Assembly: GCA_004212155.1 (NCBI GenBank)
Contig: RXIG01000024.1
Coordinates: 25,133 to 89,132, forward strand
From: an archaeon
GTDB lineage: Archaea; Methanobacteriota_B; Thermococci; Methanofastidiosales; NM3
Length of the DNA: 64,000 bases
Direction: 5' to 3'
The position numbers and the translations under genes are program-made. Numbering within the stretch: the first letter of the stretch is position 1; each line of letters opens with the position of its first letter. The notes under the pieces were generated by a model, which ran no database searches, had not been told where the DNA came from, and was given only the letters and a program-made list of their open reading frames with translations. Shown in pieces: positions 24,001 to 35,597 of the stretch.

Positions 24001-25137
24001 ATGGACCTCATCCTCGATATTGCCATACTGCTGCTGGCAGCAAAGGTCGGCGGAGAACTGACCGAGTATGCTGGATATCCTTCCATCATAGGCGAGCTCG
24101 CCGGCGGCATCATCGTTGGCACGTCGGTGCTCGGCCTCATAGGTGATACGAGCGCGCTTGAGCGCTTTGCTGACATCGGCATCCTGCTGCTCATGTTCCT
24201 GGCAGGCGCAGAGACGAATCTGCAGGAGCTCACGAAGTCGGCAGGCAGCTCAGTTGCCGTGGCGATATCAGGAGTCGTGTTCCCGTTCATGCTCGGGTAT
24301 CTTGCTGCCGTCGCGTTCGGATACGGGGCATCGGAGGGCATGTTCCTCGGCGCGGCCCTGACGGCGACTTCGGTGAGCATCACTGTGCGCGCCCTGTTTG
24401 ACATCGAAAAGCTCAATACAAGTAAGGGCATGACCATCCTTGGTGCAGCGATCATCGACGACGTCATCGGCGTCATCATCTTCACACTTGTAGTCGGACT
24501 GGCTGTGCAGGGTGAGCTCTCGGCGCTCCGCATCATCGAGGTGATAGGGGTAATCATTGCGTTCTTCCTGCTCTCGCACTTCGTGGTGCGCAGAGCCATG
24601 CGCCGCCTCTTCAAATATTCTCGCATGCTCAGGACCGAGGAGGGTACGGAAACGTTCGTCATCGTCTTCGTGCTCCTCTTCGCCCTCGTCGCAGAGGAGG
24701 CCTACATCGCAGGCATCACGGGCAGCTTCCTGGCAGGCATCATGCTAGCGCAGACGCATGACCGAAACACGATCATAGAAAAGACGAAGACGGTCGGCTA
24801 TGCGTTTTTCATCCCTCTCTTCTTCGCCTTCGTGGGGAGCCGCGTCGACATCTGGCAAATTCTTGATGTCGGGGCGATAAGTGTGGTGGTGATCGTCTTT
24901 GCCATCGTAGGCAAGATGGGTGGCAGTGCCATCGCATGCAAGGCGATCGGCATGAAGATCAGAGACGGACTCGAGATAGGCATCGGCATGACCCCCCGCA
25001 TGGAAGTGGCCATCGTCATCGCGAACGCGGCACTGACAGAGGGCGTCTTCGCGGTGCCACTCTACACGTCAGTCGTGATGATGAGCTTTGCGACGACGCT
25101 CATCACGCCGCCGCTCCTCAAGAAGTTCTTTACGTGA
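24001..25137 (+). CDS. CPA2 cation:proton antiporter (NapA/KefB-like)
   Basis: GELAGGIIVG, ATSVSIT, AIIDDV, FFIPLFF and PRMEV motifs. Confidence 0.88.
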   Translation: MDLILDIAILLLAAKVGGELTEYAGYPSIIGELAGGIIVGTSVLGLIGDTSALERFADIGILLLMFLAGAETNLQELTKSAGSSVAVAISGVVFPFMLGYLAAVAFGYGASEGMFLGAALTATSVSITVRALFDIEKLNTSKGMTILGAAIIDDVIGVIIFTLVVGLAVQGELSALRIIEVIGVIIAFFLLSHFVVRRAMRRLFKYSRMLRTEEGTETFVIVFVLLFALVAEEAYIAGITGSFLAGIMLAQTHDRNTIIEKTKTVGYAFFIPLFFAFVGSRVDIWQILDVGAISVVVIVFAIVGKMGGSAIACKAIGMKIRDGLEIGIGMTPRMEVAIVIANAALTEGVFAVPLYTSVVMMSFATTLITPPLLKKFFT

Positions 25138-26830
25138 ACTCCTTCGGGGTGAGCGTGAGCGTGCGAATGTTCTGCACAGGTGTGCCCACGGTGATATCGC
25201 ATCCCGAGGCAAGAATGAGTCCCTTGCCGCCCATGTCCTCGATGCATCGGCGCGCCTCGGTGCGTACCTTGTCGGGGGACGACATGTAGAGCGTCTCGAG
25301 TGCCGATACGTTGCCGATGATAGCGAAGCGGTCGCCAAGCATCCGTCTCGCGAACGAGAGGTCGACATGCGAGTCGATGCTCACGGCATCGGTGTTGAGG
25401 CCGCGGAACAGGTCAAGCCTGTCGCTGATGTTTCCGCAGATGTGAAGCGCCGTCTTGTCGTCGCTTCGGTTGAAGTGGCCAAAGACGTCGTTGATGAACG
25501 GAAGCGAGAACTCCTCGAAGACCTCGGCGGATATGAGGTCGCCCGATGCGACGGGGTCGCAGAAGAGATATGCCTCGATGCCCGCCTCCTGCATGAGACG
25601 GGTGAATGAAAGCGTGAGCTCGGTGCAGTACTTGAGCAGTTTGAACGCAAACGGCCTGTTCACGAAGAGGTCCATGAGGAGATTCTGGGTGCCGCGAAGC
25701 TCGGCGGCCAGGGTAAACGGCATCGCGAGCGTAGCATACGTGAAGCGAGATCCATCATTGAGCTCGTTTATCGCAGTTGCCGCCTCGATGGCCGAACTGA
25801 TGCGCTCATGCGACTGCAGCTCGGGCATCTCCAGCGAATCGATGTCCTCCGCGCGCTTGAGCAAAGGCTCGATGGTCACCGGATTACCCTTCGCCTCAAT
25901 ACGCACGTGCCCCCCTGCCGCTTCGATGGGGGCGAGCCAGTCCCATGCGCACTCGTAGGCGTCAAAGCCGCAGTTACGGACCTCCTTGTACTGGGTCTTT
26001 GCGGCTAGTTCTGGATGTGCGATCGACTGACCCACCGTCATGCCCGCGTGGTGCAGCGCCCAGTAGCCCTGAAAGGGGGGGGCGGTGGACACCATGTCAG
26101 GCACATCGCCACGAAGCGTCATCATGACGCGCTGGTGGGGCGAGACCTTGCGCTTCTTTCCCTTCAGTGTGGCAGCTCGCTGCTTGACGAGCTCGTGCGA
26201 GAGTTCCACGGTCTTGACCGCGTCGTCGGCGTAGCCGTCTGCGCCGATGGTGCGGGCGAACTCCTCGGTGACGGGGGCCCCGCCCACCATGACCTTGACG
26301 TCGTCGCGGCGCTCGAGAAAGAGGTTGACAACATCGATCATGTTCTCCATGCTCGTCGTCATGAGCGCCGAGACGCCGACGATGTCCGCATCGACCTCGA
26401 TGGCCTTTTCAAGGAACGTCTCGGCAGGCGTGTCGACGCCGAGATCATAGACCTTGAACCCACCCAGCTCAAGCAGCATCTTGACCATGTTCTTTCCGAT
26501 ATCGTGGAAATCGCCCGTGGTCACGCCGAGCACGACGGTGCCCTCGTTGTGGGAGTTGTTGTTCTGCGAAAGATAAGAATGAAGGATATCAATGGCCGCG
26601 TTTGCGGCGCGAGAAGAGAGCAGGACCTCGGGGATGAAGATCTTTCGCTGTTCGAACAGCTCGCCGAGCACCTGCATTGTGTCATGACAGGCAAACGAGA
26701 GGGCCTTGCGCACGTCGACGTCATGCTCGATGACCTGTCGGGCGGCATCTACCGCACCGTCAACATCGCCGTGGATGATGCTCCTGCACAGAGCACCCAG
26801 GATCTCGTCGTCCCGTTTCATCATGGTCAC
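25130..26830 (-). CDS. Corrinoid protein fused to MtaA/UroD-family methyltransferase
   Basis: N-terminal B12 cap plus DFHDIGKN, SALMTT and GGAP; C-terminal MtaA-like domain with LHICGN and SGCDI Zn ligands. Confidence 0.88.
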   Translation of the reverse strand: MTMMKRDDEILGALCRSIIHGDVDGAVDAARQVIEHDVDVRKALSFACHDTMQVLGELFEQRKIFIPEVLLSSRAANAAIDILHSYLSQNNNSHNEGTVVLGVTTGDFHDIGKNMVKMLLELGGFKVYDLGVDTPAETFLEKAIEVDADIVGVSALMTTSMENMIDVVNLFLERRDDVKVMVGGAPVTEEFARTIGADGYADDAVKTVELSHELVKQRAATLKGKKRKVSPHQRVMMTLRGDVPDMVSTAPPFQGYWALHHAGMTVGQSIAHPELAAKTQYKEVRNCGFDAYECAWDWLAPIEAAGGHVRIEAKGNPVTIEPLLKRAEDIDSLEMPELQSHERISSAIEAATAINELNDGSRFTYATLAMPFTLAAELRGTQNLLMDLFVNRPFAFKLLKYCTELTLSFTRLMQEAGIEAYLFCDPVASGDLISAEVFEEFSLPFINDVFGHFNRSDDKTALHICGNISDRLDLFRGLNTDAVSIDSHVDLSFARRMLGDRFAIIGNVSALETLYMSSPDKVRTEARRCIEDMGGKGLILASGCDITVGTPVQNIRTLTLTPKEFT

Positions 26831-26878
26831 AGCTTCTTGTTTATACCAACTCCTTAAAAAGGTAATTCAGGATAGAGC

Positions 26879-34204: not shown

Positions 34205-34247
34205 GATAGTTCCACCTCCCACATGGGGAAAAAGAAAAAAAGAGGGG

Positions 34248-35597
34248 TTAGTCCTCGACCACCCCTGTAGGTACGTCAATAACGTACTGGTCCGCGTACC
34301 TGCTGCGTTCCCAGCGAAGGAAGAGCCAAACGACAAATCCGATCGCGAAGTAGGCAAAGAACATGTACCACAGCGTACTGTCGAAGTACTTGAACGTGTA
34401 GTACGTCATCACTAGGCCGCATCCCACTGCGAGCACACCCGTTGCGCTTCCGCCTGGCACCTTCCATGGACGGCGCCACTTGGGGAATACCCTGCGCATC
34501 TGAAGGAACGAAAGACTTGAGATGGTATATGTTATACCAACGCCGATCGCCATCAGGGTAAAGAGATACTCCAGCCACTGCGTGCCTGAAATGGCAATGA
34601 AAAACAGTGTGACGGCAAGTATCGACCAGTTGGCAGTCGATGGTACGTGCTGCTTGTTGAGGTTCCCGAACTGACGCGGCAGGATGCGGGAACGTCCCAT
34701 GCTGTAGAGCAGCCTGGAGCCTGCAAGCCAGAATCCGTTGAGGCAGGTCGCAAGCGCGCAGAAGTTGGCCAATGCTATCGCATACTGGGCCCATGTACCG
34801 TAAAGCGCGCCCGCGATTGTGGCGCTTACCATCGGCGTTTCGTTGACGATGGTGTCGAACGGAAGCATCGCTGCGTTCACGATGCAAAGACCGCCGTAGA
34901 ACGCGATACAGAAGATGATGGAGCCAACGATAAGCCTCCAGTGCTTCTCGGTCGGGTATTTAGACTCCTCGGCGAACTGCGGGATGATCTCGAATCCGAA
35001 GAACATCGTCACCATGAGGGCCGTAGCAGTAAAGAATCCGTCCCTTCCTGTTTGGAAGAACGGGCTCCAGTTAGCCGTATCGAACGTCGGGTGGGACACG
35101 AAGAGGACCACGATTGTCACAGCAATAACAACGAGTACCAAGAACATCAAGAACTGTGCTGTAGCGCTGATGATGAGCTCACGAGAGTTCATTATGGCAA
35201 AGCCCACGGCAAGAATAGCTGCGATAATCATCATGGAGGTCAACGGCATGCCGGGCCACCACAGATATTCAACGATCCACATGAGTGCCATGAGCTGGAA
35301 CGAAAGCACTGTCGTGTACGAGAGCAAAAGTGCCCATGAGGTCCAGAACGAAGCCTCTTTGCCAAACGCGTTTTGTATAAAGACAAAAGGCCCACCGACG
35401 AATGGGAGCATGGCGGTCATTTCACCATACACCAATCCTATGGGGATACACATCAATCCGACGACCAAGAACGAGAGAGCTATAGACGCGCCGGTAAGTG
35501 AGATCCACCATTGCATCATCACTAACCAGGGTCCTATGACGGCAGCTGTCGCCATGGCGAACAGATACCAGCTCCCAAGTGACTTTTGAAGTCGCAT
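34248..35597 (-). CDS. APC family amino acid/amine permease
   Basis: About 12 TM segments; YGEMTAMLPFVGG, FFGFE, SRLLYSMGR and RPWKVPG. Confidence 0.88.
   Translation of the reverse strand: MRLQKSLGSWYLFAMATAAVIGPWLVMMQWWISLTGASIALSFLVVGLMCIPIGLVYGEMTAMLPFVGGPFVFIQNAFGKEASFWTSWALLLSYTTVLSFQLMALMWIVEYLWWPGMPLTSMMIIAAILAVGFAIMNSRELIISATAQFLMFLVLVVIAVTIVVLFVSHPTFDTANWSPFFQTGRDGFFTATALMVTMFFGFEIIPQFAEESKYPTEKHWRLIVGSIIFCIAFYGGLCIVNAAMLPFDTIVNETPMVSATIAGALYGTWAQYAIALANFCALATCLNGFWLAGSRLLYSMGRSRILPRQFGNLNKQHVPSTANWSILAVTLFFIAISGTQWLEYLFTLMAIGVGITYTISSLSFLQMRRVFPKWRRPWKVPGGSATGVLAVGCGLVMTYYTFKYFDSTLWYMFFAYFAIGFVVWLFLRWERSRYADQYVIDVPTGVVED

Follow-up and report, generated by a model that had tools for sequence, protein, structure and literature searches.

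The 64,000-nucleotide stretch of archaeal DNA analysed here (the window; positions 25,133 to 89,132 of contig RXIG01000024.1, assembly GCA_004212155.1, from a member of the Methanofastidiosales) carries a compact run of eight minus-strand genes at 25130-35597. The best-supported reading of our results is that this run is a conserved catabolic methyl-donor cluster of a methyl-reducing methanogen. Its core consists of a permease and a methyltransferase of the MT2 family (the methylcobamide:coenzyme M methyltransferases) that would act as the substrate:corrinoid methyltransferase (MT1). In the genus of the window genome (g1 hereafter), this core has gained corrinoid carriers of its own, an MtaA dedicated to it and an oxidising module. 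From the linkage, conservation, gene content and protein families observed here, we arrive at a more specific and tentative proposal, to which we give nearly an even chance: a methylated amino compound, probably an S-methyl one, may be imported and demethylated, while oxidation of the carbon skeleton supplies electrons. A first-pass annotation of the same DNA had proposed a route from uptake via stepwise oxidation to corrinoid-dependent methyl transfer, and as a whole its interpretation is partly supported.

All eight co-oriented open reading frames (ORFs) are present in the window as described at first pass, and scans of the eight proteins against Pfam and NCBIfam returned the domain content given there. 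From the first gene onwards, all on the minus strand, they encode an APC permease (449 aa, 34248..35597; AA_permease_2), a flavin adenine dinucleotide (FAD)-binding dehydrogenase of the vanillyl-alcohol oxidase/p-cresol methylhydroxylase (VAO/PCMH)-GlcD superfamily (485 aa, 32747..34204; FAD_binding_4), an HdrD/GlcF/TfrB-like CCG Fe-S protein (425 aa, 31469..32746; Fer4 and two CCG domains, with two [4Fe-4S] motifs) and a tungsten/molybdopterin aldehyde:ferredoxin oxidoreductase (AOR; 631 aa, 29554..31449; AFOR_N and AFOR_C). These are followed by a corrinoid protein (211 aa, 28922..29557; B12-binding_2 and B12-binding), by a divergent MtaA-like protein of the MT2 family that we call MT_a and consider a candidate MT1 (342 aa, 27897..28925; URO-D), by an MtaA-type methylcobamide:coenzyme M (CoM) methyltransferase (337 aa, 26879..27892; URO-D), and by a fusion of an N-terminal corrinoid domain with a C-terminal MT2-family domain (566 aa, 25130..26830; B12-binding_2, B12-binding and URO-D), for which an alternative start is the ATG at 26824. 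The starts of the FAD, corrinoid and MtaA genes were shifted inward using homologue alignments and the junction sequence. The same scans confirmed that the cluster itself holds no MtaB, MtmB, MttB or RamA domain.

The cluster recurs as one conserved unit in loci of the same genus, of metagenomes and of a second phylum. We scanned genomes with MT_a and metagenomes with an alignment of the FAD protein, kept 80 loci from each scan, and screened the loci from both with the eight window proteins. Besides the window genome (G000), genus g1 is represented by two metagenome-assembled genomes (MAGs), G001 and G002. All eight genes are found in the same order in G002, at 56–79% identity, and in the metagenome locus L096, at 54–82% identity. 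G001 has the genes from CCG through the fusion at 94–98% identity, reaching the end of a 9.1 kb contig; its FAD gene would lie past that end. Within the class (133 genomes, 97 of them in one family, of which one genus comprises 62 species; sampled members have near-complete genomes of ~2 Mb), an MT_a orthologue (E <= 1e-70) occurred in three genomes and an orthologue of the FAD gene (E <= 1e-90) in two, all of them of genus g1.

The second phylum is represented by loci labelled Methanomethylicales or Nitrososphaerota (L018, L072, L095 and L172), in which a permease on the opposite strand is followed by AOR, FAD, CCG and methyltransferase genes. L072 and L172 were counted once, because their methyltransferases are identical. 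In L017, the FAD, CCG, methyltransferase and corrinoid genes stand behind a transposase fragment, and L150 was too short for its gene content to be judged. In the Methanomethylicia-type class, 5 of 62 genomes had an orthologue of the methyltransferase, and the same five had an orthologue of the FAD gene; the two genes share a contig, at a distance of ~1.3 kb, in four of these genomes and are split over two short contigs in the fifth. The synteny of APC, GlcD-like, CCG, AOR and MtaA-like genes, which the first-pass annotation had offered as a check of its idea, is conserved in this second phylum as well.

The FAD, CCG, methyltransferase and permease genes of L172 are reciprocal best hits of the operon genes in the window genome, and the permease orthologues of the Methanomethylicia-type loci share 33–37% identity with the window permease. 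The AOR of L172, however, matches an AOR on contig C7 of the window genome better than the operon AOR (280 versus 232 bits). This non-orthology suggests that an AOR-family gene was recruited to the cluster twice across the two phyla. Because an AOR seemingly joined the cluster on two occasions, the aldehyde-oxidising step would belong to its function. The Methanomethylicia-type loci shared no neighbours beyond the five-gene core, and hence gave no hint of the substrate.

The widest-spread linkage is that of the permease with MT_a. In the order to which the Methanomassiliicoccus-labelled locus L016 belongs, the MT_a family (E <= 1e-60, up to 54% identity) was found in 33 of 261 genomes, from which we fetched 20 Methanomassiliicoccales-type loci, some of them ending at contig edges. 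A permease orthologue (36–58% identity) directly adjoins the MT_a homologue in 13 of these loci and is missing in seven. Some loci have two methyltransferase copies or two tandem pairs, and the pair often stands without an adjoining corrinoid gene. FAD, CCG and AOR had no match in any of the 20 loci. L016 likewise pairs the permease with the methyltransferase without an oxidoreductase, and a search of its genome at E <= 1e-30 gave no FAD orthologue. Since the permease and MT_a can stand alone, the imported compound is probably the methyl donor itself, demethylated directly, and oxidation would be an added module rather than a needed pre-treatment. The first-pass proposal that the substrate is oxidised from alcohol via aldehyde to acid and only then demethylated is not supported, as the pair does without an oxidoreductase in 13/20 loci. 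Other neighbours in the Methanomassiliicoccales-type loci were an HTH_10 regulator (5/21), an FMN_red protein (4/21), a class-V aminotransferase (3) and a class-III aminotransferase (two near-identical loci).

The permease matches AA_permease_2 at 1.5e-35, with every NCBIfam equivalog far under its cut-off. It reached 2.9e-42 and 1.3e-37 with general amino acid transporter models, versus 4.3e-26 with an ethanolamine permease model, and its closest solved structure is an SLC7/CAT-like amino acid transporter (5oqt, 2.1e-22).

Judged by model scores, the gene at 26879-27892 is a CoM-methylating MT2. It passes PRK06252 (370.8 versus 244) and TIGR01463 (304.3 versus 235.4), misses the equivalog of the methanol-specific MT2, NF040654 (MtaA_Meth; 334.9 versus a cut-off of 400), for which it scores best of the genes, and shares 38–40% identity with the further MtaA-like genes encoded in the genome. 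MT_a matches URO-D at 1.4e-70. The methyltransferase domain of the fusion is 39.5% identical to MT_a; compared with the MtaA gene, MT_a reaches 35% and the fusion domain 28%. The corrinoid protein scores 190 bits with TIGR02370, under the cut-off of 215.

That the MtaA-like proteins are not true UroD was borne out. All three URO-D genes score below the HemE cut-off (TIGR01464; 87.0, 59.4 and 62.2 bits versus 302.95), and the MT_a family profile, built from 54 sequences, matches MtaA (4ay7) at 1.3e-48 over profile positions 3-334, compared with ~1e-29 for UroD structures. Its match to CdmB (9rui), the representative with a solved structure of the O-demethylase/dehalogenase branch, amounts to 3.4e-13 and covers profile positions 142-335 only. 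In the alignment to 4ay7, ‘lhicGdts’ corresponds to ‘LHICGNVN’ and ‘GagCDia’ to ‘APGCGIA’, with the His-x-Cys and the Cys aligned. The residues H240, C242 and C321 are nearly invariant among the 54 sequences, and we take these positions to be the His-x-Cys...Cys zinc site that activates a thiol. These features place the methyltransferases in the MtaA-like zinc-thiolate branch, not in the O-demethylase branch.

In a quick maximum-likelihood tree of 53 rows chosen from the fetched loci (LG+G4, SH-aLRT only, rooted on an MtaA outgroup), MT_a and the fusion domain fell into one 37-member clade apart from MtaA (SH-aLRT 100). Within it, the MT_a of g1 grouped with the permease-linked Methanomassiliicoccales-type methyltransferases (SH-aLRT 100) and the fusion domain of g1 with the FAD/CCG-linked Methanomethylicia-type methyltransferases (SH-aLRT 83). 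According to this tree, the g1 operon unites both sub-branches. Full-length relatives of the fusion made up 7 clusters among the 120 listed matches, at 54–94% identity.

The FAD and CCG proteins had been likened at first pass to GlcD/GlcF-type pairs. The FAD protein is no clear GlcD: it matches FAD_binding_4 at 2.3e-21 and reaches 76.1 bits with the glcD model TIGR00387, versus a cut-off of 567.9. In the test for FAD-oxidase_C, only FAD_binding_4 was detected in the window protein, while relatives carry PF02913. The family profile (80 sequences) matched PCMH at 8e-53 and mouse D-lactate dehydrogenase (mLDHD) at 5e-49. Foldseek searches with the AlphaFold model (pLDDT 92) found mouse D-lactate dehydrogenase (2e-31) and PCMH/vanillyl-alcohol enzymes (3e-29) about equally close, and the ESM Atlas returned generic ‘FAD-binding oxidoreductase’ clusters only. 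Tyr443-Lys444 of the window protein is conserved in the alignments, and the Y-K of the profile aligns with Tyr473-Arg474 of PCMH, which presumably has a role in phenolate binding. Where mLDHD has the motifs HVGDGNF[H] and GEHGIG, the window protein has, by eye, H402...N409 and Y443-K444. Taking H-x-G-D-G-N-x-H and G-E-H-G to be the metal-site motifs of D-lactate dehydrogenase, the FAD protein tentatively seems to lack most of this site. A paralogue on contig C22 of the window genome was considered as a canonical GlcD for its ‘EHG’ string; the mLDHD alignment puts this string elsewhere, and the paralogue gave no usable reference.

Relatives of the FAD protein comprise close ones at 77–80% identity (one cluster labelled Methanofastidiosia), a group at 44–47% (‘Thermoprotei archaeon’ where labelled), Asgard-labelled sequences at 34–39% and Desulfobacterales-type sequences at ~30%. 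In the Asgard-like loci (L097-L120), the FAD-CCG pair stands beside 2-hydroxyacyl-CoA dehydratase components (families in 9/24 and 5/24), the ATPase activator of the dehydratase (5/24) and an arginase-family gene (6/24). These neighbours hint at the 2-hydroxy/2-oxo acid chemistry of amino acid breakdown. An arginase-family gene also adjoins the cluster in L172, an observation that we judged too weak to build on.

The CCG protein matches the CCG domain in two stretches (2.6e-34) and Fer4_8 at residues 16-87 (1.8e-09). Its best NCBIfam match is to the C-terminal part of TfrB (173 bits, under the cut-off), and its matches among solved structures are 9ojn (1.2e-33) and HdrB chains (3e-13). The protein has the architecture of HdrD, which is undiscriminating because GlcF, GlpC and TfrB share the two [4Fe-4S] and two CCG motifs. 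The AOR is canonical, with matches to AFOR_N (2.9e-74), AFOR_C (2.3e-111), 9mqx (1.5e-117) and the Pyrococcus furiosus AOR 1aor (1.8e-113); the equivalog NF007354 matches its N-terminal 208 positions only (205.8 bits versus a cut-off of 868).

The AOR gene is tied to the methyltransferase genes at the junction between the oxidation and methyl-transfer halves of the cluster. The junctions (43, 0, 19, ATGA, ATGA, 4 and 48 nt) agree with the gaps under 50 bp or overlaps reported at first pass. The permease and FAD genes are separated by 43 nt. The FAD and CCG genes lie 0 nt apart, the stop TAA being followed directly by ATG, and 19 nt lie between CCG and AOR. The corrinoid gene has 4-nt ATGA overlaps on both sides, with AOR and with MT_a, and the last two gaps are 4 nt (MT_a to MtaA) and 48 nt (MtaA to fusion). 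T-runs follow the stop of the permease gene (TTTTTTTCTTTTT) and that of the CCG gene (TTTTTTTT). Upstream of the cluster, an AT-rich region with TATA-like elements (35598..35760, minus strand), read from the sequence, is a candidate promoter; G+C drops to 0.506 across 34001-36000.

The window genome is a MAG of 1.49 Mb in 28 contigs, 89.84% complete, and encodes McrA. The protein clusters nearest to its proteins bear the NCBI label ‘Candidatus Methanofastidiosia archaeon’, which points to the order Methanofastidiosales in the class Thermococci. A separate methanol system is found on contig C9, where the only MtaB of the genome is accompanied by MtaC, by an MtaA-like gene and by a RamA-type gene. 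The RamA-type activases encoded outside the window number two (C15:205420 and C9:8904). Pfam models of MttB and MtmB had no match in this 89.8% complete genome. There are four AOR genes, that of the cluster included, 22 CCG-domain matches across ~10 ORFs, with HdrB-sized CCG proteins among those outside the cluster, and two more FAD-CCG pairs, on C20 and C22. The same genome holds a corrinoid gene with two MtaA-like genes at C10:63611-66408, and two MtaA-like-corrinoid fusions of ~600 aa, of opposite domain order, followed by a RamA-type gene at C15:200455-206202.

The likening of the cluster to the Methanosarcina methyl-sulfide systems, made at first pass, is apt. According to passages in 10.1101/548461, MtpA is an MT2-family protein that acts as MT1, has MtpC as a binding partner and is co-purified with MtsF, a corrinoid-MT2 fusion; the mtpCAP operon has a third gene, mtpP. 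As far as these passages describe it, the methylmercaptopropionate system MtpC/MtpA/MtsF/MtpP of Methanosarcina acetivorans resembles our cluster in its MtaA-like MT1, adjoining corrinoid protein, corrinoid-MT2 fusion and separate MT2. In our cluster, however, all full-length relatives of the fusion among the 120 listed matches fall within its own clade. The mtpP gene encodes a transporter, whereas the transporter here is an APC permease, and descriptions of the mtp system include neither an AOR nor a FAD/CCG dehydrogenase. The methylthiol:CoM methyltransferase MtsA/MtsB of Methanosarcina barkeri is alike in that, in the descriptions available, an MT2 homologue and a corrinoid partner act on thioethers. 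It differs in that MtsA performs both half reactions, whereas the cluster has a separate, strongly MtaA-like gene. An ‘MtsA’ has also been assigned to Methanofastidiosa, which a passage of PMC12724199, citing earlier work, describes as relying on methylated thiol reduction; in contrast, just 3 of the 133 class genomes searched have our cluster.

The oxidising module also has known counterparts. ‘GlcD/HdrD’ pairs are known from Methanomethyliales, Bathyarchaeota and Archaeoglobus and share the FAD_binding_4, two [4Fe-4S] and two CCG motifs of the FAD-CCG pair; with such a pair in Methanomethylicia-type genomes, the FAD and CCG genes of the cluster form reciprocal best hits. The colocated hdrD/glcD of Methanomethyliales was proposed to reduce heterodisulfide (passages in PMC6421429 and 10.1101/2022.08.18.504445); these passages describe a possible lactate-linked heterodisulfide reductase and mention no adjoining methyltransferase, AOR or permease. 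The AOR is like the Pyrococcus furiosus-type enzyme in its full-length match with both AFOR domains, but differs in the translational coupling of its gene to that of a corrinoid protein, of which our literature searches found no description. The MtoABCD, MtvABC and Odm systems and the Cdm/Cmu systems follow the same logic of a UroD-superfamily MT1, a corrinoid protein, an MT2 and an activase; passages in PMC13222342 include O-demethylases among the UroD-superfamily enzymes and group CdmB with MtoB and MtvB. MT_a differs from their MT1 in belonging to the MtaA rather than the CdmB/MtoB branch, and the methyl acceptor would most likely be CoM via the MtaA homologue, not pterin. We found no published description of a cluster of permease, MtaA-like, FAD/CCG and AOR genes in a search whose scope ended short of subscription journals and supplements (e.g. 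SI Fig. S7 of PMC6421429 and the gene tables of MAG papers). The parts are of known kinds; the combination, its recurrence in two phyla and the stand-alone permease-methyltransferase pair were not found described in these searches.

Twenty sequencing runs were listed as matching the stretch, all of them through contigs. Four were compared along the stretch, and habitats were taken from these four alone; parts of the stretch that the RNA library leaves uncovered carry no meaning here. None of the 20 runs contains half of the sampled words. Relatives were present in two oil-field/crude-oil DNA runs and one lake run (X1: 21 of 61 pieces at >=99%). One RNA-library run had 25 small contigs on the stretch, of which three on MtaA showed 0 differences and those on AOR and APC 3–11. 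A 749-base contig spans the CCG-AOR junction with 58 differences, and hence stems from a relative. These contigs are a weak hint of expression. Contig depth peaked at 25952-26335 and 29024-29407, and in several runs ‘joints’ skipping ~2.9 kb linked the two corrinoid-domain regions. Most likely, these are contigs of other organisms that match the B12-binding motif of the paralogous domains, rather than a deletion form.

In the mechanism that we propose, the APC permease would import a methylated amino compound, most likely a thioether such as methionine, S-methylcysteine or a methylthio-amine. Two divergent MtaA-like methyltransferases of the zinc-thiolate type, namely MT_a and the C-terminal part of the fusion, would take the methyl group from the substrate and transfer it to Co(I), both in the free corrinoid protein and in the corrinoid domain of the fusion. 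The true MtaA homologue would then pass the methyl group to CoM, for reduction to methane by methyl-coenzyme M reductase. The FAD/CCG dehydrogenase and the AOR would oxidise the carbon skeleton, either before or after the compound has been demethylated, with electrons going to the acceptor of the CCG protein (possibly the heterodisulfide) and to ferredoxin. The corrinoid would be reactivated by one of the two RamA-type activases encoded outside the cluster. We infer the MT1 role of MT_a and the fusion, the S-methyl substrate, and the link between oxidation and methyl reduction. An S-methyl amino compound is suggested by a zinc site of the thiol type, by the precedent of MtpA and by a permease of the amino-acid type, none of which is proof.

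Several observations weigh against this proposal. MT_a and the fusion score 195.9 and 169.6 with TIGR01463, both under the cut-off of 235.4, and by curated score are divergent relatives rather than members of MtaA/CmuA. The zinc motif has also been reported for CmuA-type enzymes, and is hence no proof of a thioether substrate. The likeness to MtsA, MtpA and MtsD/F/H is one of design rather than demonstrated orthology, and no protein by these names appeared among the matches listed for the cluster proteins. The substrate class of the FAD protein may be either the D-2-hydroxyacid or the PCMH/VAO type. Moreover, the Asgard-like loci carry the FAD-CCG pair without a methyltransferase (CCG in 23/24; methyltransferase, AOR and APC in 0/24), which makes the pair a dehydrogenase module of general use. 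For methanogens, it has been interpreted as a heterodisulfide reductase that has no relation to a methyl donor (passages in PMC6421429 and 10.1101/2022.08.18.504445). The T-runs after the permease and CCG stops may serve as archaeal terminators or attenuators and so end transcripts; because of them, the cluster is possibly read as the sub-units APC, FAD-CCG, AOR-corrinoid-MT_a-MtaA and fusion. The RNA-library contigs cannot show one transcript, and DNA can occur in an RNA library. Since the Methanomethylicia-type genomes in which the genes co-occur are kin, the 5/62 pattern may reflect one or two events only. Finally, a cultured member of the Methanomethylicia, which may or may not carry the cluster, was reported in the abstract of PMC12244365 not to use methanethiol or lactate.

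Some of these observations would be explained if two separate functions merely travelled together, which we consider unlikely, though far from negligible. The FAD/CCG pair and the AOR would then be a general redox module that reduces CoM-S-S-CoB and ferredoxin from an unrelated donor (a hydroxy acid, amino acid-derived aldehydes), and the permease and methyltransferases an independent methyl-thiol system. Their neighbourhood would reflect shared use in methyl-reducing energy metabolism, not one substrate. Indeed, each half occurs by itself, the FAD-CCG pair without methyltransferases in the 24 Asgard-like loci and the permease-methyltransferase pair without FAD, CCG and AOR in Methanomassiliicoccales-type loci. 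The T-runs part APC, FAD-CCG and AOR, the genome has the two further FAD-CCG pairs on C20 and C22, and the colocated hdrD/glcD has been proposed as a heterodisulfide reductase in the two sources just cited. Yet the FAD orthologue (44–47% identity) is confined to the 5/62 genomes that have the methyltransferase orthologue, and lies directly beside it. The AOR is translationally coupled to the corrinoid gene, a non-orthologous AOR stands in the same cluster of the other phylum, and the HdrB-sized CCG proteins encoded elsewhere imply that the genome does not depend on this pair.

Other alternatives concern the substrate or the direction of methyl transfer. Methoxydotrophy, in which a PCMH/vanillyl-alcohol-dehydrogenase-like flavoprotein turns a 4-hydroxybenzyl-type alcohol or amine into an aldehyde, the AOR yields the acid, and the MtaA-like proteins O-demethylate a methoxylated aromatic, would fit several features of the FAD protein: PCMH is the best match of its profile (8e-53, full length), its Y-K aligns with Tyr473-Arg474, and Foldseek found vanillyl-alcohol dehydrogenases and eugenol oxidases (TM 0.82–0.84). 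Close relatives of the window also occur in oil-field/crude-oil metagenome contigs, and the UroD superfamily includes O-demethylases (passages in PMC13222342). We nevertheless deem it improbable, as the MT_a profile matches MtaA at 1.3e-48 versus a partial 3.4e-13 for CdmB, which those passages group with MtoB and MtvB. The thiol-type His-x-Cys...Cys zinc positions are kept, the transporter is an amino-acid/CAT-like APC permease, and PCMH has a two-residue ‘yg’ insertion compared with the FAD family in the profile alignment. We take the insertion site to be that of the third phenolate-binding tyrosine, Tyr95, which the FAD family, missing the insertion, seems not to have. Very improbable is a substrate from among the N-methylated amino alcohols (choline, dimethylethanolamine or methylethanolamine type), which would be brought in by an ethanolamine-permease-like APC carrier, oxidised from alcohol via aldehyde to acid, and demethylated. 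The FAD dehydrogenase and the AOR fit this route of the first-pass annotation, and the permease does match the ethanolamine permease model (4.3e-26), but general amino acid transporter models match better (2.9e-42 and 1.3e-37). Genes of the MttB, MtmB and MtbB types are absent from the cluster, and Pfam models gave no MttB or MtmB in the 89.8% complete genome. We know of no N-demethylating MT1 in the MtaA-like family; the known ones are of the MttB, MtmB and MtbB types. We would be most surprised by a non-catabolic role in which an imported thiol or cofactor is methylated (coenzyme M/thiol salvage, detoxification) rather than its methyl group harvested. MT2-family enzymes are reversible thiol methylases (passages in 10.1101/548461), and an adjoining corrinoid gene is often absent from the Methanomassiliicoccales-type permease-methyltransferase loci. 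However, a compact cluster that combines a dedicated MtaA with two corrinoid domains and with two oxidoreductases has the layout of a catabolic methyltransferase system. Furthermore, APC carriers are, to our knowledge, not known as importers of sulfonates or CoM.

Several genes near the cluster or its relatives deserve mention. An FMN_red/flavodoxin-like gene (22222..22803, minus strand; FMN_red 5.8e-29) lies 2.3 kb downstream of the cluster and is possibly associated with it. G002 has a member of this family within the cluster, between AOR and the corrinoid gene (L015:8663-9241), and the family stands close to the methyltransferase in 4/21 Methanomassiliicoccales-type loci, as at L201:6122-6697. 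The FMN_red protein may be an electron carrier of the system. At the 3' end of the cluster, G002 has a gene of the Na+/H+ exchanger family according to Pfam (L015:13740-14885); in the window, a convergent 378-aa ORF occupies the same place (24001-25137, plus strand), its assignment to that family being read from the translation only. The unassigned metagenome contig L145 (4172-12791) carries an AOR, a corrinoid protein, an MtmB-family gene and a FAD-CCG pair on one strand, a further case of AOR and FAD/CCG beside a corrinoid methyltransferase system. The bacterial-looking locus L146 (44-12891) combines DUF5940, a UroD-type methyltransferase, a corrinoid protein, a GntR regulator, MtrH, a second UroD-type methyltransferase and a distant FAD-CCG pair; its 1149-aa protein has RACo activase domains fused to a pyridine-nucleotide-disulfide oxidoreductase.

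Elsewhere in the window, a minus-strand run at 46537-52715 consists of a malic enzyme (46537-47892), a TfrB-like subunit with 2Fe-2S, 4Fe-4S and two CCG motifs (47885-49444), a fumarate-reductase-type flavoprotein (49437-51227) and a two-subunit fumarase (51148-52715), and looks like a thiol:fumarate reductase branch. On the plus strand, 18015-21340 encodes the large subunit of a NiFe hydrogenase, along with a 529-aa protein in which a small-subunit-like domain (Oxidored_q6) and ferredoxin motifs are joined to the N and C domains of FrhB; judged from these domains, this protein would fuse FrhG with FrhB, which is unusual. A TiaS TCKD domain is present in two 315-aa paralogues (37354-38301 and 39183-40130), between which lies a 247-aa ORF.

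Methanofastidiosales, Methanomethylicia and Methanomassiliicoccales are thought to be limited to a short list of methyl donors plus H2, and most MtaA-like genes of methyl-reducing methanogens have no assigned substrate. The permease-methyltransferase pair offers a testable marker of a new class of methyl donor, which is likely taken up as an amino compound; the MT_a family occurs in 33/261 of the Methanomassiliicoccales-type genomes searched, with the permease adjoining in 13/20 of the fetched loci. The oxidising module added in two other lineages suggests how reducing power might be drawn from the same compound, and provides a concrete context for ‘GlcD/HdrD’, so far discussed only as a hypothetical heterodisulfide reductase. 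Carried further, into what we regard as doubtful territory, a single imported compound might provide both the methyl group and the electrons, via FAD/CCG to CoM-S-S-CoB and via AOR to ferredoxin, so that methane formation in these Methanofastidiosales and Methanomethylicia would be independent of H2, and the pair might mark an unrecognised class of S-methyl amino substrates in a tenth of the Methanomassiliicoccales-type genomes searched. Since close relatives occur in oil-field and crude-oil contigs, the pathway may also bear on methane formation in reservoirs.

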